64,000 nucleotides of DNA. Origin: Deltaproteobacteria bacterium. GTDB taxonomy: Bacteria; Myxococcota_A; UBA9160; SZUA-336. Location of the stretch: contig VGRW01000005.1 of NCBI GenBank assembly GCA_016875225.1, positions 2,936 through 66,935 of the forward strand, given 5' to 3'. The translations under genes were made by a program, and so were the position numbers. The notes beneath the pieces were generated by a model. That model worked only from the letters and a program-made list of their open reading frames with translations. It was not told the origin of the DNA and searched no databases. Positions 32,978 through 40,516 of this stretch are shown one piece after another (position 1 is the first letter of the stretch; each line of letters begins with the position of its first letter).

Positions 32978-35004
32978 AAGGACGGGGCCAGCGTGATGCC
33001 CGCGTCGGAGCTGCGGTGCGGCGCCGCGGAGATGCCGTCCAGACCCACGGCCAGTCTCGCCTCGACAGGGAAGTAGCGCGAGATGCCGAGCCAGCGCGCG
33101 AAGGGAATCACGAGCGAGGCGCGCGGACCGAACGTTCCGACCTCGACGGCGACGCGGGCGTGGTCGAGGCTCGCGCGCGCGCCGATGCCAAGCTCGCCAT
33201 CCGCATCGCCGTTCGCGTAGAACATCGGGTCGTAATCGCGACGGATCTCGATGCACGGCGTCTCGGGCGGACAGGAAAGGCTCTCGCCTCCGAGCGCACG
33301 CTCGGCCAGGAAGCTCTCCTCGCGACGCTCGAGCTCGACCGCGCCAGCCATGTGCGAGCGTTGCCCGTCCACCAGCGCCGCTTGGAACGCGTCGGCTCCG
33401 GACGCGAGCTCGACGCGCCAGGGGCGCGCGACGAGCGACCGCCCTGCCCGGACCCGCGCGTCCATCCGCCGCAGATGGCCCAGGACCCCGCCCGCGCTCT
33501 CGCCGCGGGCCGAGAGCGTCGCGTCCTCGATGCCGCTCGCCAGACCCGCCAGAAGCGCGAGCGATCGGGCCGTCGGTATTCGCGAGCCCGCTTCGACCGG
33601 CCGACCCGATTCGGTGTCGAGCGAGATCAGGAATGCCGCGGCGTCGGAAGTAAGCCCGTCCAGCAGCTCCGGCGCCGCTCCTTCGAGCGCCGCGCGCGCG
33701 ACCACGACTCGCGTCGCAGCGAGGCGCGTCCACGCCGTCTTCGAGTGCGGCAGCACCAGGACTCCATCCTGGAACGCCGCGGCGCGCGGGCGGCTCCGCT
33801 CCTGGGCAGCGAGCGATTCGAGGCACGACGCCGCTTCGGCCGCCCGTTCGCCCTCGGGAGCGAGCTCGAGGTAGCGCCGCGCCGCGCTGCCAAGCGCGCG
33901 GCCCTCGGGCTGCCAGGAGCGCCAGGCCCGCGCCGGCGCATCGATCACCAGATTCGCCGGGCTCAGGGCCGCGCGCCAAGCCCGATACGACTCGCGCCAG
34001 GCTTCGAAGCCGTCGCGACTCAGCGCGAGCGCATCCGTCGCCGAGGGCACGGCCGTGGTGGAGAGCTCCTCTCCACCCACCCAACCGAGCGCGCGACGAG
34101 TCCGATACAGGTCGAGCTCGGTCTCGAACGCGGCATCCGGATCCACGCTCGGATCGACGAGCCACTCCGACGCGAGCTTCGCGGCCCGATCGCGTCCACG
34201 CGCGATGCGCCTCAGTTCGTCGAGGGCGCGATCGCGATCGCCGCGGAGATGGCGCGCCGCCGCGCGGGCCAGAGCGGCATCGCTGGAATCGATCGGTCCC
34301 AGCTCCTGCGCGCGCGCGAGGTCGTCGAGGAGCAGCGCGGTCCCGAGCTGAACCTCCCAGGCCGCGATCGAGAATTCCGAAGCAACCGCCTCCGACTCCG
34401 CCTGCTCGTCCAGCAGCGCGCGCCATTCCTGCTCGTCGATCTCGTCGAGCAGGCGGTCCGCGCGCGTCGAGCCGGGCTCGAGCGCGAGCGCGCGGTCGAC
34501 GGTTCGGCGCGTGCGCCGGAGATCACCGGCTCCGAACGCGCGTTCGGCCTCGGAGAGCAGCTCCGCGACGCGAGCCTCGCTCTCGCGCCGCTCCAGGCGC
34601 GTGAAGAGCGCGAGGCTCGCGGCGTCGAGCTCGCCGCTGCGAGCGCCGGGCCCGAGCAGAACCATCGCCTCGTCTTCCGCCAGGCTCCGGTCATCCCAGT
34701 CGCGCAAGCCACGCCCGACCCGCCCGACAGAGCGCAGCAGCTTGAGCGGCGAGACTTGTAGCGATGCGTGGATCCCGAGGTCGACGATCTCCGCGGAGAG
34801 ATCTGCGAATTTCCTGCGACGCTCGGCCGCGAGCAGCTCCGAGGCCTCGCTGGCGCGCGCCTGGTCGCTGCGAAGCTCGGGCGCGAGGAGCAGACTCGCC
34901 GCCTCCTCGCCGACATCGAGCTCGCCCGCGCGGCTGCTCGAGCCGGACGCGAGCGAGAGCACGAGCACGGCGATCGCCAGCGCGATGCGCGGATCAGTGC
35001 GCAT
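32974..35004 (-). CDS. secreted hypothetical protein, helical N-terminal region and C-terminal beta-rich segment ending in Phe (outer-membrane-protein-like)
   Basis: Signal peptide MRTDPRIALAIAVLVLSLASG. 676 aa. The C-terminal ~100 aa have alternating hydrophobic residues and a terminal F (ITLAPSF). Confidence 0.65.
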   Translation of the reverse strand: MRTDPRIALAIAVLVLSLASGSSSRAGELDVGEEAASLLLAPELRSDQARASEASELLAAERRRKFADLSAEIVDLGIHASLQVSPLKLLRSVGRVGRGLRDWDDRSLAEDEAMVLLGPGARSGELDAASLALFTRLERRESEARVAELLSEAERAFGAGDLRRTRRTVDRALALEPGSTRADRLLDEIDEQEWRALLDEQAESEAVASEFSIAAWEVQLGTALLLDDLARAQELGPIDSSDAALARAAARHLRGDRDRALDELRRIARGRDRAAKLASEWLVDPSVDPDAAFETELDLYRTRRALGWVGGEELSTTAVPSATDALALSRDGFEAWRESYRAWRAALSPANLVIDAPARAWRSWQPEGRALGSAARRYLELAPEGERAAEAASCLESLAAQERSRPRAAAFQDGVLVLPHSKTAWTRLAATRVVVARAALEGAAPELLDGLTSDAAAFLISLDTESGRPVEAGSRIPTARSLALLAGLASGIEDATLSARGESAGGVLGHLRRMDARVRAGRSLVARPWRVELASGADAFQAALVDGQRSHMAGAVELERREESFLAERALGGESLSCPPETPCIEIRRDYDPMFYANGDADGELGIGARASLDHARVAVEVGTFGPRASLVIPFARWLGISRYFPVEARLAVGLDGISAAPHRSSDAGITLAPSF

Positions 35005-35905
35005 GGCCCTTCACTTCCTCGTGGACGGCGAGCAGCGCCTCGATCCGCGTCCGCGCCTCGCGGCGGAGCGCGGGCTTGTGGTCCTCGCCCGCCAGCTCGT
35101 AGGCCGAGAACGCCTGATCGAGGAGCGAGTCGTATCGCTCGACGTCGAGATTCGCGATTCGCGCCCTCGCCCGCACCCGCTCGCGCCGCGCCGCATCCGC
35201 GTACAGATCGCCGAGTCGCAGCAGGTGCTTGCCGAAGAGCTTCGATTCGCGATGCGTCTCGATCAACGTCCGGCAGGCGCCGATCGCGTCGACGAGTCTG
35301 CCGGCGCGCTCCAGCCCGTCGACGCGCAGGACCTCCCAGCTCTCCGCCTCCTCGCGGGCCAACGGCTCCTGCGGAGTCCCCCGTACGTCGAGCGAGAGGC
35401 TTCGCCAGACCGCGAGTCGGCCTTCGACGAAGAGCAGCTCCTCCTCCGCGCTCGCGAAGGGTCGCTCGGGCGCGGCGGAAGCGGCGGCGAATTTCTCGAT
35501 GCTCTCCAGCCGCTCCGCGGCCGCATCGCCCAGCAGCGACCCGGACTCCTTCACGCGCGAATACGCGCGCGCCGCGTCCTGGTAGCGGCGCAGTCGTTCG
35601 AGCGCCTTGCCGCGGGCGAACTCGATCACGTAGTCGGCGTTCTGCCATTCGGATTCGGCGCGCGCTCGCTGCGCCGCGAGACGATCGAGCTTCCAGAGCG
35701 CGACGGAGTAGACGTCGTTGCCACCGGGTCCGACCGCTCGATCGAAGCGGTACGTGTCGTCTTGCATGTGCATCTTCAGCTGCGAGACGACCGCCGTCAG
35801 CGAGTCGTGCGCGCCGGCGGCGTCGCGTTCGCGCTCGCTCTGCGAAGCGCTCGCGCAGCCGACGAGCCAGCCGAGAACCGGGGCCACGAGCGCGATCTGT
35901 CGCAT
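34994..35905 (-). CDS. hypothetical lipoprotein
   Basis: ATG at 35905 gives MRQIALVAPVLGWLVGCASAS (lipobox LVGC). 303 aa, helical. 11-nt overlap with the downstream secreted-protein gene. Confidence 0.6.
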   Translation of the reverse strand: MRQIALVAPVLGWLVGCASASQSERERDAAGAHDSLTAVVSQLKMHMQDDTYRFDRAVGPGGNDVYSVALWKLDRLAAQRARAESEWQNADYVIEFARGKALERLRRYQDAARAYSRVKESGSLLGDAAAERLESIEKFAAASAAPERPFASAEEELLFVEGRLAVWRSLSLDVRGTPQEPLAREEAESWEVLRVDGLERAGRLVDAIGACRTLIETHRESKLFGKHLLRLGDLYADAARRERVRARARIANLDVERYDSLLDQAFSAYELAGEDHKPALRREARTRIEALLAVHEEVKGHAH

Positions 35906-36101
35906 GCGTCCCACGCCGTCACGAGGCTGCAGCTGTCGTGCCGGAGATCGGGAATCGGCAGCTCGCAGGCAGCTCCCGACGCAACCCGGCCCGGCTCGAT
36001 ACGGGAATCGCGCCTCGCCGACCGCTACTGCGAAGCGGCGTGCGCGGGGCGAAGCGGGGCGCACGTCCGAGTTGCGCGGATGCTGCGGATCCGCCGCCGG
36101 A

Positions 36102-36596
36102 TCAGCGCTCCAGCCAGTCCTCCGGCACGCCTGCAAGCGACGCCTCGACCCTCAGGTCTCGCAATCGCTGGCGCGAGGCTTCGAGCGACTGGCGATCGCG
36201 GCGCAGCTGAGCCCGGAGCTTCAGGACCTCCGGATCGGTCGCCTCGCCCCCGGCCGGGGAGTAGTTCCAATCCCCCGCCGTCGTCTTGCGCAGTCGCTGC
36301 TGACCGACCTCTACCTTCGACTCGAGATCGGTCACCTCGTAGTTCGCGCGCTCGAACGCGTCGCGCCATTCGGCGCGGTCACGGCCCCCGTAGCGGGGCT
36401 CCGCCGAAGGAGCGTCGCTCATGCTTCCCGGCGGCCGGAGCAGCCGCTCCAGATCGAGCGGCGGGGATGGCTCGTGCTGCGGCGCCGGGGACACGTCCTC
36501 GGGACCGATGTCGCCCCCGGGCGGTGGCGCCGATTGCGCCCACCCGTAGCCAGGGCAGATCAGCAGGAGCAGCAGGCAGAGTCGGGCGGAGTGCAT
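36102..36596 (-). CDS. small secreted hypothetical protein (Pro-rich N-terminal region, coiled-coil C-terminus)
   Basis: MHSARLCLLLLLICPGYGWAQS signal peptide. 164 aa. This is the only non-junk part of the 893-aa antisense ORF. Confidence 0.5.
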   Translation of the reverse strand: MHSARLCLLLLLICPGYGWAQSAPPPGGDIGPEDVSPAPQHEPSPPLDLERLLRPPGSMSDAPSAEPRYGGRDRAEWRDAFERANYEVTDLESKVEVGQQRLRKTTAGDWNYSPAGGEATDPEVLKLRAQLRRDRQSLEASRQRLRDLRVEASLAGVPEDWLER

Positions 36597-36713
36597 CCTC
36601 GGCCGAGTATAGGACAGGGCCGCGGCAGCTCCCATCAAGCGCGGATCAGGCGCGGCCGAAGCAGTGGGAGACGCGCGCGACGGCGGCTCGACGCGCGAGG
36701 GCGGGACCCCAAA

Positions 36714-37853
36714 ATGGATCGAGAGCGACTCCATCGACTGCTGCGGCTGGGCTTCGAAAAGGGCGCATCCGACATCCACTTCCAGGTCGGATACCTGCCG
36801 CTCTATCGCTTCAACGGCGAGCTGGTCGAGCTGAAGTACAAGATCCTGACGATGGCCGACACCGAGGCCATCGCGCGCCTGCTCATGGAGTTCGATCCGT
36901 CCAAGACGCTCGACGGCGTGTCCGAGATCGACATGGCCTACGAGATCGCCGGCGAGGGACGCTTCCGCGTCAACATCTCGCGCGAGCGCAAGGCCTACAA
37001 CATCGTGCTTCGCGTCGTGCCGCTCTCGATCAAGTCCTTCGAGGAGCTGAACCTGCCCTCGGTGCTGCGGACGATCGCGTCGGTGCAGCGCGGGCTGGTC
37101 CTCGTGACGGGCGCGACTGGAATGGGCAAGTCGACCACGCTCGCGACGATGCTCCAGGAGATCAACCGGGCGCTGAAGTGCAAGATCGTGACGATCGAGG
37201 ATCCGGTCGAGTTCATCTTCACGCACGAGCATTCGATCATCACCCAGCGCGAGATCGGCACCGACACGCCGAGCTTTCCCGCCGCGCTTCGAGCCGCGCT
37301 GCGACAGGATCCGGACGTGATCATGGTGGGCGAGATCCGCGATGCGGAGACCGTCGACACGGCGCTGAAGGCGGCCGAGACCGGGCATGCGGTGTTCTCC
37401 TCGATCCACACCAACGACGTCGTGACCACGCTGCGGCGGGTGGTGTCGTTCTTCCCGGTCGAGGAGCACCAGCAGGTCCGGGAGCGCCTGGCGGAGAACC
37501 TGCAGTCGATCGTCTCGCTGCGTCTGCTCCCGAACAAGAAGGGCACCGGACGCGTGCCCGCCGTCGAGGTCCTGCGCACGACCCGCTCGATCCGCGAGTG
37601 CATCCGCGATCCGAACCGCGCGGTGGAGATCCGCGATCACATCGAGAAGGGGCATTCGGACATGGAGATGCAGACCTTCGATCAGCACCTCCTCGAGCTC
37701 TACCAGGCGAACAAGATCAAGCTCGAGACCGCTCGCGACGCCGCGTCGAATCCGCGCGACTTCGCGACCAAGCTCGCGCTCGAGGGCGACTCGTCCTACA
37801 CGCAGGAGAGCCCGGGATCGCTCTCCGGCGGAAGCGACGAAGGTCGCTTCTAG
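36714..37853 (+). CDS. pilT: type IV pilus retraction ATPase PilT (twitching motility)
   Basis: Walker A GATGMGKSTT, IVTIEDPVEF, His box AVFSSIHTND, typical PilT C-terminus. 379 aa. Confidence 0.92.
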   Translation: MDRERLHRLLRLGFEKGASDIHFQVGYLPLYRFNGELVELKYKILTMADTEAIARLLMEFDPSKTLDGVSEIDMAYEIAGEGRFRVNISRERKAYNIVLRVVPLSIKSFEELNLPSVLRTIASVQRGLVLVTGATGMGKSTTLATMLQEINRALKCKIVTIEDPVEFIFTHEHSIITQREIGTDTPSFPAALRAALRQDPDVIMVGEIRDAETVDTALKAAETGHAVFSSIHTNDVVTTLRRVVSFFPVEEHQQVRERLAENLQSIVSLRLLPNKKGTGRVPAVEVLRTTRSIRECIRDPNRAVEIRDHIEKGHSDMEMQTFDQHLLELYQANKIKLETARDAASNPRDFATKLALEGDSSYTQESPGSLSGGSDEGRF

Positions 37854-37859
37854 ACCGCC

Positions 37860-39089
37860 ATGGAGATCCTCGCGCTCTACACCTCGCCCGATACGCTTCC
37901 CTCGGCGCTCGCCGCTGGCGCGCGCCATCTCGCCGCCGCGCTGCAGGGCTTCGCGCTGGTCTATCGCGCGACGCACGTCGCGGCCGAGCCCGACGGCTGG
38001 GCCGGCTTCACCTGTGCGAAGGACGCGCAGGTCGCGGGCGAGGAGCTCGACGACTTCGTCCGCCAGACGCTGGCATCCGAACGGCCGCTGCGAACCGACT
38101 CGCCCGAGGGCAGCCCGCGCATCTGGAGCCGAGCGGCGGGCGGGATCTACGGCTTTCCGATTCGCCACAACGGGCAGGTGCGCGGCGTTGCGCTGCTCGG
38201 CTGTCCGGGGCCGTGGCCGCGCGTGCAGAACGCGGGGATCGAGTCGATCCTTCGGCAGATCGCGCTGGTCCTGGATCACCATGCGGTGTCGAGCAGCCCC
38301 GCGGTCGAAGCCGAGCCGTCCGACGAGCTGCTGCGGCTCTCCGAGCAGCTGCTCGCCCAGGACATCGAGCTGATCAAGCGCGAGGAGCGGCTCACGCTCG
38401 TCGAGCGCCTGAAGGCGGATCTGATCGAGACGATGTCCTACGAGCTCCGCCAGCCGCTGAACAGCATGATCGAGCGCATGATCTCGGTGCTCGCGAACGA
38501 GCACGAGGCGCTCTCGGTATCGGGACGCGATTCGCTGCGCGGCGTGCTCGCCGACGGCAACACGCTGATGCAGATGCTCCAGAACATCCTCGACCTGTGG
38601 CGTCTGAAACAGGGCGAGGTTTCGATCGACATCCAGGACGTGAACCTGGCCGAGGTGATCGAAGAGGCGATCTTCAACGTTCGCGACACGCTGCAGCCCG
38701 ACGTCGTCTTCGAGAAGCGGATCCCGTCGGCCCTGCCGAAGATCCGCACGGACCTCGGCAAGCTGAATCAGATCCTCTTCCACCTGCTCGACAATGCCGC
38801 GAAGTTCACGCGGCGCGGGCGGATCGCGCTCGAGCTCGGGCTAGAGGACGGGCAGCTGGTCTGCAGCGTGACGGACACGGGAATCGGGATCGCCCCGGAC
38901 GATCAGGAGCAGATCCTCGACGAGTTCTACCGGGTCGATTCGTCGCCCGACAGCCGGCACCGCGGCGCCGGCCTGGGTCTCACGCTCGCGCGCGGATTGA
39001 TCGAGAAGCTCGGCGGGTCGCTCTCGCTCCAGAGCGAGATCGGTCAGGGCTCGCGCTTCAGCTTCGCGTTGCCCGTCACCATCTGCTAG
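37860..39089 (+). CDS. cytoplasmic GAF-like / HisKA / HATPase_c histidine-kinase-like protein whose H-box histidine is replaced by Tyr
   Basis: The dimerisation/phosphoacceptor box reads IETMSYELRQPLNSM where the consensus is SHELRTPL. N, G1, G2 boxes are present (LLDNAAKFT, DTGIGI, GAGLGL). No TM segment. Starts 7 nt after pilT. Confidence 0.85.
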   Translation: MEILALYTSPDTLPSALAAGARHLAAALQGFALVYRATHVAAEPDGWAGFTCAKDAQVAGEELDDFVRQTLASERPLRTDSPEGSPRIWSRAAGGIYGFPIRHNGQVRGVALLGCPGPWPRVQNAGIESILRQIALVLDHHAVSSSPAVEAEPSDELLRLSEQLLAQDIELIKREERLTLVERLKADLIETMSYELRQPLNSMIERMISVLANEHEALSVSGRDSLRGVLADGNTLMQMLQNILDLWRLKQGEVSIDIQDVNLAEVIEEAIFNVRDTLQPDVVFEKRIPSALPKIRTDLGKLNQILFHLLDNAAKFTRRGRIALELGLEDGQLVCSVTDTGIGIAPDDQEQILDEFYRVDSSPDSRHRGAGLGLTLARGLIEKLGGSLSLQSEIGQGSRFSFALPVTIC

Positions 39090-39099
39090 CCGCAGACGG

Positions 39100-39309
39100 T
39101 CAGTGCTGGGCGGCGTCGCCCTCGAGGTCGGGTGCGACGTAGCCGGCCGCGACCTCGCGCAGCGCGTTCACGACTGCCTTGTTCTCGGTCGTCTTCACCA
39201 GCCCGCGAGCTCCCCGCATGATCTGCTTGGCCCGGACAGAGACCATGACGACCAGGGCGAATCGGTTTCCCGCCCGCTCGGTGCAGTCCTCGATCGTGAT
39301 TCTGGCCAA
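39100..39309 (-). CDS. rpoZ: DNA-directed RNA polymerase subunit omega
   Basis: 69 aa: MARITIEDCTERAGNRFALVVMVSVRAKQIMRG. Confidence 0.9.
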   Translation of the reverse strand: MARITIEDCTERAGNRFALVVMVSVRAKQIMRGARGLVKTTENKAVVNALREVAAGYVAPDLEGDAAQH

Positions 39310-39361
39310 GGGGAACTCCTTCTCGTTGCGCGGCCGATCCTAGGATCTGGTCTTCGCCGGC

Positions 39362-39403
39362 GCAAGAAAGAAGAAGCCCCCGTCGCTTCGCAGCGACGGG
39401 GGC
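39362..39403 (-). terminator. putative intrinsic terminator after the 40-aa basic micro-ORF
   Basis: Minus-strand RNA: GCCCCCGUCGC-UGCGAA-GCGACGGGGGC (11-bp GC stem) followed by UUCUUCUUUCUU. Confidence 0.5.
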
Positions 39404-39429
39404 CTTCTATGGAATCAGAATGCGAGGCC

Positions 39430-39552
39430 TCAGACGGCCTTCTTGCGGCGGCGTGTGGCCTTCTTACGGCCAGCCTTCTTCTTTCCGCCCTTCTTCGCAC
39501 CCTTCTTCCGCCGCGTTGCCTTCTTGCTCGCGGCTTTCTTCCGAGCTGCCAT
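39430..39552 (-). CDS. 40-aa extremely basic Lys/Arg/Ala-rich micro-protein (histone-H1-like / nucleoid- or ribosome-associated candidate)
   Basis: ATG preceded by GGGGGTGAGAG (RBS-like). Translation MAARKKAASKKATRRKKGAKKGGKKKAGRKKATRRRKKAV. Hairpin terminator immediately downstream. Below the 60-aa cutoff of the ORF track. Confidence 0.45.
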   Translation of the reverse strand: MAARKKAASKKATRRKKGAKKGGKKKAGRKKATRRRKKAV

Positions 39553-39799
39553 TTGCTCTCACCCCCATTTGCGTTTTTGTTCACCGTGCTCGCGTTGCGA
39601 CCGCTCCGCTTGCGCTTCGGGGAGCAATTCGTGCACGACCGAGAGGACCCTGATTTGCGATTCCTCTCGCGTCACGTATCGGACTCGATCTTCCGAACTT
39701 GACGCGAGCACCGTTGTTTCACGTCTGGAAACGCGCGGTTCCCGTTCTCGGTTGCGCACACAGTAAGCATTGAGCGGCGAAAGTGTCAACGGAAGCGCC

Positions 39800-39836
39800 A
39801 AAAAAAACGCACCGATGTGTTCCATCGGTGCGTTTG
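39800..39836 (-). terminator. strong rho-independent terminator (acts on minus strand; A8 on plus / U8 on minus)
   Basis: Plus strand AAAAAAAA-ACGCACCGATG-TGTTC-CATCGGTGCGT-TT, a perfect 11-bp stem. On the minus strand it is followed by 8 U, directly downstream of the bS22-like ORF. Confidence 0.75.
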
Positions 39837-39870: not shown

Positions 39871-39966
39871 TCAGCGCTTGTTGCGCTTGTGTCTCTGCTT
39901 CGCGCGAAGCTTCTTGTACTTGTGCTTGCGCATCTTCTTGCGCCGCTTCTTGATCACGCTGCCCAC
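39871..39966 (-). CDS. bS22-like ribosomal micro-protein candidate (31 aa)
   Basis: GTG-initiated ORF translating (M)[30 protein letters not shown]. Near-identical in pattern to mycobacterial bS22 ([21 protein letters not shown]...). GGAGG lies ~12 nt upstream, and a strong terminator follows. Confidence 0.55.
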   Translation of the reverse strand: [31 protein letters not shown]

Positions 39967-40024: not shown

Positions 40025-40516
40025 TCAAGCACCCTGCGCGCGAGAGAGCACCCAGGCCGCGCGTCCGAGCATGCGCGCCTGGACTCGCCCGAGCAGCCGA
40101 TTCAGGGCATGCCCGCGCGGCAGGAAGCGGATCGGCGGCCTGCGCCGGATGCCGAGATCGGCGAGGCGCTTGTGCACCGACGCGTTTTCGGGATCCACCA
40201 TCAGCGCCCTGCGCAGGAAGCGGATCGCGTCGGCCTTGAAGTCGAACGCCAGATAGATGCGGGCGAGGTTCTGATAGAGGTCCGGGTTGTAGAACTCCTG
40301 CCGCACCGCGGCACGCGCCAGCTCCACCCCGCCGAGGAACTGACCGCGCACGAGCGCGAGCGCGAGCGCATACGAGGAGCGGAAGCGCGCGTTCTGCGGG
40401 TCGATCAGATAGGCGCGAGAGAGGTGCTCGAACGCCTCGTGGCCGTGACCGGCCTCGAGAAGCGCGAAGCCGCGGCGATGGTGTTCTTCGGGCGTGAACT
40501 CGGTCTTCTGCTGCAT
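40025..40516 (-). CDS. small TPR-repeat protein
   Basis: 163 aa: MQQKTEFTPEEHHRRGFALLEAGHGHEAFEHLSRAYLIDPQNA...YQNLARIYLAFDFKADAIRFLRRALMVDPENA (TPR-like helices). It is the C-terminal in-frame tail of a longer junk ORF. ATG at 40516 with AGGTGG upstream. Confidence 0.7.
   Translation of the reverse strand: MQQKTEFTPEEHHRRGFALLEAGHGHEAFEHLSRAYLIDPQNARFRSSYALALALVRGQFLGGVELARAAVRQEFYNPDLYQNLARIYLAFDFKADAIRFLRRALMVDPENASVHKRLADLGIRRRPPIRFLPRGHALNRLLGRVQARMLGRAAWVLSRAQGA

Follow-up and report, generated by a model that had tools for sequence, protein, structure and literature searches.

A Predicted Polybasic Microprotein Gene with a Candidate Structured mRNA Leader between a bS22-like Gene and rpoZ in Uncultured Myxococcota

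The Locus and Its Microprotein Gene

We analyzed a 64,000-nucleotide stretch of DNA from a Deltaproteobacteria bacterium (GTDB lineage Myxococcota_A; assembly GCA_016875225.1, contig VGRW01000005.1), referred to here in its full length as the window. On its reverse strand, between a gene for a bS22-like ribosomal protein and rpoZ, the gene for RNA polymerase omega, lies a 40-codon open reading frame (ORF) that runs from an ATG at 39552 to a TGA at 39432-39430 and specifies the peptide MAARKKAASKKATRRKKGAKKGGKKKAGRKKATRRRKKAV. A preliminary description of the locus had given this lysine-, arginine-, and alanine-rich micro-ORF exactly and had put its content of lysine plus arginine at about 60%; the peptide is indeed ultra-basic, with a slightly lower exact value of 55% (22 of 40 residues). 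It contains no acidic, aromatic, or large hydrophobic residues, and its net charge is about +22. Judging from the reading frame and its conservation in relatives, the ORF is a real, conserved gene whose translation is very likely. The features of the predicted transcription unit are as follows.

39784..39789, reverse strand: -35 hexamer TTGACA, immediately after the bS22 terminator (20 of 20 genome-derived sequences, 50 loci)
39760..39765, reverse strand: -10 hexamer TACTGT, of the TAnnnT type, after an 18-nucleotide spacer (conserved hexamers and spacing)
39634..39753, reverse strand: leader domain 1, about 120 nucleotides (individual and group folds, RNAalifold on 10 close relatives, covariance model)
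39585..39637, reverse strand: leader domain 2, a hairpin with closing pairs CGUG/CACG and an interior that varies (group A consensus fold)
39584-39567, reverse strand: A-rich linker, unpaired, just 5' of the Shine-Dalgarno sequence
39556..39566, reverse strand: Shine-Dalgarno sequence GGGGGTGAGAG, separated from the ATG by 3 nucleotides (GGGGG(G)TGA in all aligned loci)
39430..39552, reverse strand: coding sequence of the polybasic microprotein, stop codon included (ORF reading and conservation in relatives)
39364..39405, reverse strand: intrinsic terminator with stem GCCCCCGUCGC/GCGACGGGGGC and tail CUUCUUUCUU

The G+C content of the window is 70.3%, and across all six frames just three stretches hold at least eight lysines per 25 residues: the C-terminus of LepA, bS22, and the 40-codon ORF. 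Because lysine-rich frames are nearly absent from a window of this composition, the ORF is more than a chance occurrence; lysine outnumbers arginine in it despite the 70% G+C genome. Two kinds of competing frame were discarded as unconserved in relatives, namely an overlapping 129-residue ORF in another frame (39584..39195), whose counterparts measure 56, 31, or 29 residues, and forward-strand ORFs spanning the microprotein region. Arginine-, alanine-, and proline-rich ORFs of 600-1500 residues also overlap real genes on both strands of the window, including one at 34511-39142 on the forward strand, and are by-products of the 70% G+C content.

Direct searches with the peptide came back empty, and the neighboring TPR protein was therefore used to fetch related loci. 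This retrieval gave 19 species-level Myxococcota metagenome-assembled genomes (MAGs; GTDB species, TPR protein identity 67-94%) and 36 metagenome loci, and three further loci were retrieved through rpoZ homologues. Every sufficiently long locus carries a lysine/arginine-rich ORF starting with MA[AV]R[KR][KR] between bS22 and rpoZ. Loci bearing it come from the 19 GTDB species genomes, from 30 metagenome loci, and from the three found via rpoZ, about 50 altogether. These loci conserve the initiating ATG, the opening codons (ATG GCA GCN CGN), and the Shine-Dalgarno sequence. Over the 17 N-terminal codons in 11 species, all five variable sites (5/5) fall at third positions, and more distant members show third-position wobble in alanine, threonine, and arginine codons; for lysine, the family uses AAG 377 times and AAA 6 times. 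The preliminary description had proposed to check whether relatives keep the reading frame and change it synonymously, and they do.

Distant TPR relatives (33-41% identity, L058-L061) have neither bS22 nor the microprotein where the downstream sequence suffices to tell (L059 and L060). Identity to the query is 62% or more in each of the best 120 rpoZ homologues listed, and those examined on long contigs, three in number, share the synteny. Among the retrieved TPR- and rpoZ-based relatives, no cultured organism with the gene was found. The family was found in one clade of uncultured Myxococcota.

Contrary to the earlier expectation that no ORF caller would report the gene, the exact peptide is present as a called gene in public assemblies (70 collection blocks in the index, 23 contigs read). 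Callers are inconsistent on relatives. At L065:1769-2425, a 218-residue call on the opposite strand spans a 103-residue microprotein gene; at L062:2065-2466, on a long-read contig of 3x coverage, a frameshift moves the repeat ORF to the arginine-rich frame and the gene is uncalled.

The 38 distinct peptides of the family span 35-127 residues and contain 54-67% lysine plus arginine, the remainder being alanine, threonine, glycine, and serine; aspartate, glutamate, aromatic, and large hydrophobic residues are practically missing. Basic residues recur with a period of five, seen as a peak in the charge autocorrelation, and form degenerate A-x-R-K-K pentapeptides. At L050, a 15-nucleotide unit is repeated 22.9 times with 92% identity. 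L049 and L051 have flanks that are 100% identical and differ solely by a 75-nucleotide in-frame indel, equal to five pentamers, which reflects either a true population polymorphism or assembly collapse. AlphaFold2, run on the single sequence, placed two helices at residues 2-19 and 25-39 (predicted local distance difference test, pLDDT, 81.5; predicted template modeling score, pTM, 0.34). These modeled helices are at most compatible with helix formation upon binding a polyanion and give no evidence of a fold. Foldseek returned no match to this model in the PDB; as a query, a 40-residue helical hairpin modeled from one sequence is uninformative.

Expression Signals, Leader, and Flanking Genes

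The promoter ahead of the gene, TTGACA-N18-TA[C/A]TGT, recurs in each of the 20 genome-derived sequences and, over all sources, in 50 loci, with a spacer of varying sequence. It was missed by a consensus promoter scan because the -10 hexamer matches the consensus at three of six positions (T1, A2, and T6). Transcription is predicted to start near 39753, which would give a leader of 201 nucleotides. The preliminary description had drawn the unit at 39362-39552; the unit is real, and its extent has to be revised, since it begins at the promoter (39789-39760) with a leader of about 200 nucleotides. The ribosome-binding site that it reported before the ATG was recovered as GGGGGTGAGAG at 39566-39556.

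The GC-rich hairpin and U-rich tract described about 25 nucleotides past the ORF proved to be a 14-base-pair stem with 10 G-C pairs (39405-39374), beginning 24 nucleotides past the stop codon and followed by CTTCTTTCTT. Across the family, a stem of the form GCCCCCGUYGC/GCRACGGGGGC with a UUCUUCUUU tail is found 3' of the ORF in 34 of 34 loci examined, and the stop codon always lies just ahead of it. The Rfam model ctRNA_p42d aligned to the terminator with 28.7 bits against a cutoff of 50 and was dismissed because it reflects only the common shape of a hairpin with a U-tract. From this arrangement, the microprotein gene is most likely monocistronic. Some read-through of the terminator is possible, as its U-tract is interrupted by C.

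The leader of about 200 nucleotides (39553-39753, reverse strand) is conserved and structured and includes a domain supported by covariation. Domain 1 is closed by a long-range helix, P1, in which transcript nucleotides 2-8 pair with CUCUCGG about 110 nucleotides downstream. Its inner helices flank an invariant AAGU-N15-CCGAUA core, found with exactly 15 nucleotides of spacing in 35 of 42 distinct leaders. In divergent lineages, the closing helix is kept with different sequences, as CCGGGAUCGGAAC/GUUCGAUUCCGG in L018, GUUGGAAC/GUUCCAAC in L020, and GAUCG..AACUCC/GGAGUU..CGAUC in L050. Cognate 5' and 3' leader segments pair better than non-cognate ones (permutation p ~0.01). For the hairpin of domain 2, the closing pairs are invariant and a few inner pairs are compensated; its support is weak.

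Almost no covariation was seen among the 10 closest leaders because their sequences are too similar, and when 20 divergent whole leaders were aligned with plain MAFFT, RNAalifold predicted no pairs because that alignment was too poor. A covariance model, R1, was built from the 10 closest leaders. Its matches in divergent lineages are full-length and anchored at the start, with E-values from 5e-7 to 0.56. In the R1 alignment, which is fitted to the model's own structure, 87.5% of cells are paired compared to 33-48% with slid partners, and compensatory changes occur in 22 of 35 pairs compared to 3-10 with slid partners; none of 500 shuffles reached the observed values. A hand-drawn structure of the 48-nucleotide core, with 68% pairing and one clearly covarying pair, was superseded by this alignment. 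Among 4227 Rfam families, none matched the leader; in the whole window, only a tRNA reached a gathering score. On the leader strand nothing appeared at E<=10; the sole hit, to a microRNA model with 15.8 bits, lies on the other strand. Overall, the leader appears to be a real structured element and is a candidate for a new cis-regulatory RNA.

Two lineages depart from this architecture. The leaders of L036 (3254-3348) and L038 (1108-1192) measure 87-97 nucleotides and consist of a 5'-terminal hairpin and the linker, the AAGU/CCGAUA core having been deleted; both loci still keep the promoter, ribosome-binding site, ORF, and terminator. The core is therefore dispensable in some lineages. A separate subclade, formed by L011, L012, L014, L025, and their relatives, differs around leader nucleotides 60-85. 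Its leader has lost about 30 nucleotides and has a second copy of AACCGAG, the 5'-end sequence, beside CUCGGU, and the resulting local hairpin competes with the closing helix; such a hairpin could act as an alternative-structure switch.

As the preliminary description had proposed, the gene lies between the bS22-like gene and rpoZ and is terminated separately from both, as seen from profile matches and the two terminators. The flanking features are as follows.

39871..39966, reverse strand: bS22-like gene, 31 residues, GTG start, upstream neighbor (profile matches)
39835..39805, reverse strand: terminator of the bS22-like gene
39365..39337, reverse strand: promoter-like element TTGCGC-N17-TAGGAT, immediately after the U-tract of the upstream terminator, candidate rpoZ promoter
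39100..39309, reverse strand: rpoZ, TTG start, downstream neighbor (TIGR00690, 52.7 bits)

The 31-residue bS22-like ORF matches Pfam COX24_C with 32.8 bits (cutoff 23) and NCBIfam ribo_bS22 with 30.7 bits, just under the cutoff of 34. Its start codon is GTG in the window and ATG in several relatives. An apparent promoter of its own, TTGACA-N16-TAACTT, has a -35 hexamer (40028-40023) that overlaps the stop codon of the TPR gene. The bS22 terminator consists of the stem CGCACCGATG...CATCGGTGCG followed by T8, and the stem sequence is kept even in distant relatives. In the same loci, the bS22-like protein is nearly invariant at 29-32 residues.

Directly upstream of bS22 there is always a 163-residue TPR-like protein (40025-40516, reverse strand), with 67-94% identity across the clade. 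In the contigs shown for the exact peptide, the gene order is KhpA, PAS histidine kinase, 163-residue TPR protein, bS22, ORF, and rpoZ; beyond rpoZ lie a convergent HATPase protein and a PilT-like ATPase. The rpoZ start codon (39307-39309) is TTG in the window and ATG in most relatives. Spacing between the ORF and rpoZ ranges from 99 to 375 nucleotides, with insertions, and TTGACG/TTGCGC-N17-TAnnnT lies 30-40 nucleotides ahead of the rpoZ start in most loci. Thus, rpoZ appears to have its own promoter.

Proposed Function and Alternatives

With modest confidence, we propose that this gene is monocistronic and that its product is an intrinsically disordered small polycation, which would bind polyanions electrostatically and without sequence specificity, nucleic acid, whether DNA or RNA, being the most probable target. 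Conserved composition, free repeat number, the lack of any fold-defining residue, and strong expression signals together fit a charge-driven polyanion binder.

A possible course of events would begin with transcription from the sigma-70-type promoter TTGACA-N18-TACTGT. The transcript would cross the structured leader of about 200 nucleotides, whose first helix would start 1-2 nucleotides from the predicted 5' end; the unpaired A-rich linker and strong Shine-Dalgarno sequence would then drive translation of the 40 codons, and the intrinsic terminator would end the transcript ahead of rpoZ. The polycation, possibly turning helical upon binding, would neutralize the charge of a cellular polyanion or compact it, whether nucleoid DNA or RNA, including ribosomes. 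This mode would resemble that of protamines, the C-terminal tails of histone H1, chlamydial Hc2, and the KPAA tails of AlgP and PhaF. The 5'-terminal stem of the leader suggests mRNA stabilization, and its invariant core points to a binding site, perhaps one used in feedback control; the leader would probably set mRNA stability, adjust the dose of a potentially toxic polycation through feedback, or both. We infer from these features the abundance of the microprotein, its binding of a polyanion, and its target, as well as the role of its leader.

Several points weigh against this proposal. The function is argued from composition and analogy, and no homology to characterized DNA- or RNA-binding families was found. 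All carriers are uncultured MAGs, and collapse of short-read assemblies could explain some of the differences in repeat number. The covariation in the leader comes from an alignment biased toward the structure to which it was fitted. The charge density, about 60% lysine plus arginine, is far above that of bacterial H1-like proteins and equals that of peptides buried in rRNA, such as Borrelia bS22 with 61% lysine/arginine (PMC10618245). Finally, the conserved location beside bS22 and rpoZ could mean that the peptide acts on the ribosome or RNA polymerase instead of the nucleoid.

These last points bear on the main rival, possible if rather unlikely, which holds that the gene encodes a lineage-specific ribosomal or ribosome-associated protein, either buried in or draped over rRNA like bS22, eL41, bTHX, and bL37 or serving as a basic hibernation or assembly factor, with an autoregulatory leader. 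At every locus the gene comes immediately after the bS22-like gene; its lysine/arginine content of 55-67% equals that of bS22 (PMC10618245); and its consensus-type expression signals and long structured leader are as in many r-protein operons. Cryo-electron microscopy still finds tiny r-proteins in unannotated ORFs (PMC10618245, PMC5876184), and the bent two-helix shape of the AlphaFold2 model would suit one. Peptides known to lie buried in rRNA are however fixed in length and sequence, and so is the adjacent bS22, whereas the microprotein varies 3.6-fold in length by pentamer copy number, possibly within one population. It is also transcribed separately from bS22 and matches no ribosomal-protein profile or solved ribosome chain in sequence or fold, and its leader core is missing in two lineages (L036 and L038). 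The option of a ribosome-associated basic peptide, which the preliminary description had named, is thus weakened by repeat variation over 35-127 residues set against a nearly invariant bS22.

We give a similarly low probability to the idea that peptide and leader form an undescribed, clade-specific system, in which the peptide would be a new polybasic subunit associated with rRNA or RNA polymerase, or would bind the AAGU-N15-CCGAUA core of its own leader as one half of an autoregulated pair. Were such a pair to exist, the leader would represent a new class of cis-regulatory RNA.

Less probable still is a binder of polyphosphate, as AlgP is on its granules, or of another polyanion that is not a nucleic acid, which would organize or neutralize such stores instead of chromatin or RNA. 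The microprotein is of the same lysine-rich, repeat-variable, disordered type as granule-localized AlgP (PMC9239181), and its extreme positive charge and lack of a fold would suit this role. No ppk, ppx, or CHAD genes were found among the listed neighbors, however, and the genes in synteny belong to the expression machinery; by electrostatics alone, polyphosphate and nucleic acid are inseparable as targets.

Two readings deny the peptide a function of its own, and both are very improbable. As a leader peptide whose translation through lysine and arginine codons controls the terminator and hence rpoZ by attenuation, the ORF would be suitably short and rich in two amino acids, with a terminator 24 nucleotides on, then rpoZ on the same strand, and a C-interrupted U-tract that permits some read-through, but it spans 35-127 codons at 99-375 nucleotides from rpoZ with insertions, the folds offer no alternative antiterminator pairing, in most loci the terminator is followed by a promoter-like element before rpoZ begins, and the amino acid pattern is kept through synonymous changes that a codon sensor would not need. 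As a by-product of AAG/CGC-rich sequence in a structured RNA or a long rpoZ 5' untranslated region, it would be in keeping with the long spurious ORFs common at 70% G+C, such as the overlapping 129-residue ORF, and with the clear RNA constraint on the upstream leader; against this, the conserved part of the ORF changes at third positions alone, its ATG and Shine-Dalgarno sequence never vary, insertions and deletions come in multiples of 15 nucleotides, the stop codon always sits just before the terminator, and the alternative frame is unconserved.

If the microprotein is indeed a disordered polyanion binder, a minimal, stand-alone polycation would join the short list of bacterial H1- and protamine-like proteins, as a repeat-only protein with no folded domain conserved across a widespread clade of soil and sediment Myxococcota that has no cultured representative. 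What appears to be new is a microprotein that comes with a conserved structured leader, itself a candidate new mRNA element, and that always sits between bS22 and omega. This pairing raises the question of whether the nucleoid, the ribosome, or RNA polymerase is the site of action. The locus also exposes a blind spot, a family that is invisible to composition-filtered searches of billions of proteins and is called erratically as a gene. The finding bears on no open problem of long standing; its functional part is one that we infer by analogy.

Comparison with Known Systems

Sequence searches placed the microprotein outside established families. A protein homology search with the peptide gave 101 word-match candidates, none of which scored; phmmer returned 0 hits against 1.84 billion representatives; and exact look-up of 10 family members in a collection of 15 billion proteins found none. 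In Pfam and NCBIfam, the 40-residue window peptide had no hit at E<=10, which includes the bS22 profiles NF047430/PF08213 that the upstream 31-residue ORF does match, and a sequence search of the PDB gave no usable match for the family peptides. The family goes unseen in HMMER-based and word-based searches because of composition-bias correction and filtering. With peptide searches therefore blind, synteny alone revealed it. We found no description of the microprotein in the literature. The likeness to H1, Hc, and AlgP KKAA proteins suggested earlier holds for composition and fails for family membership, as no profile reaches its threshold: the long homologues score 9 bits with the HC2 profile (PF07382/NF038052; cutoffs 40 and 135) and 12.5-14 bits with NF038053 (hist_H1_lk_Burk; cutoff 80).

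Protamines are peptides of 30-50 residues that are unfolded alone and condense DNA through charge neutralization. The microprotein has a similar size and a similar fraction of basic residues, but protamines are eukaryotic and dominated by arginine, whereas most members of this family are dominated by lysine, and there is no evolutionary link.

Among bacterial proteins, chlamydial Hc2 (HctB) binds DNA and varies in length by the number of its lysine-rich pentamers (PMC2848022). The two share a low-complexity sequence rich in lysine, alanine, arginine, and threonine, basic pentapeptide repeats, and length variation by copy number, which in Hc2 occurs between strains (PMC2848022). Hc2, however, has 165-237 residues compared to 35-127 in the microprotein, whose charge density is higher (55-67% lysine plus arginine), and it belongs to another phylum; no developmental role is known for the microprotein. 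The lysine-rich, repeat-containing AlgP, the PhaF tail, and the Burkholderia H1-like proteins are likewise disordered, with repeat numbers that vary between orthologues, and AlgP and the PhaF tail bind polyanions (PMC9239181, PMC12818456): H1-like AlgP sits on polyphosphate granules (PMC9239181), and the disordered KPAA-repeat tail of PhaF, whose repeat number differs between species, binds mRNA via its lysines (PMC12818456). These proteins are about 25% basic and include a further folded or N-terminal domain, and AlgP and PhaF carry multiple KPAA motifs, whereas the microprotein is the repeat alone with almost no proline (0.7% of pooled family residues) and, in the window peptide, no KPAA motif. 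The likeness to Hc1, Hc2, and AlgP is compositional only.

The ribosomal micro-proteins bS22/eL41/mS38 (PF08213, NF047430), bL37, and bTHX are also tiny, about 60% lysine/arginine, and often unannotated (PMC10618245), and they are helical when bound to rRNA (PMC10618245). Their length is fixed and their sequence conserved and non-repetitive, with bS22 nearly identical at 29-32 residues in these loci, whereas the microprotein is repetitive, varies from 35 to 127 residues, and has no profile or PDB match. For the leader, the closest parallels are the autoregulatory leaders of r-protein genes and the ompA-type 5' stem-loop, with which it shares a long conserved 5' untranslated region, a helix at the 5' end, a fold supported by covariation, and the strongly expressed gene for a small basic protein; it differs in matching no Rfam family and in that two lineages keep the terminal hairpin only.

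Short tandem repeats rich in lysine and alanine, with a copy number that varies between relatives, are the mark of bacterial H1-like proteins and were found in this family. The microprotein, outside all curated families, is akin to the bacterial H1-like and protamine-like class in its composition and in how its repeats behave and, by its sequence, would be a minimal, stand-alone, and far more charged form of that class.

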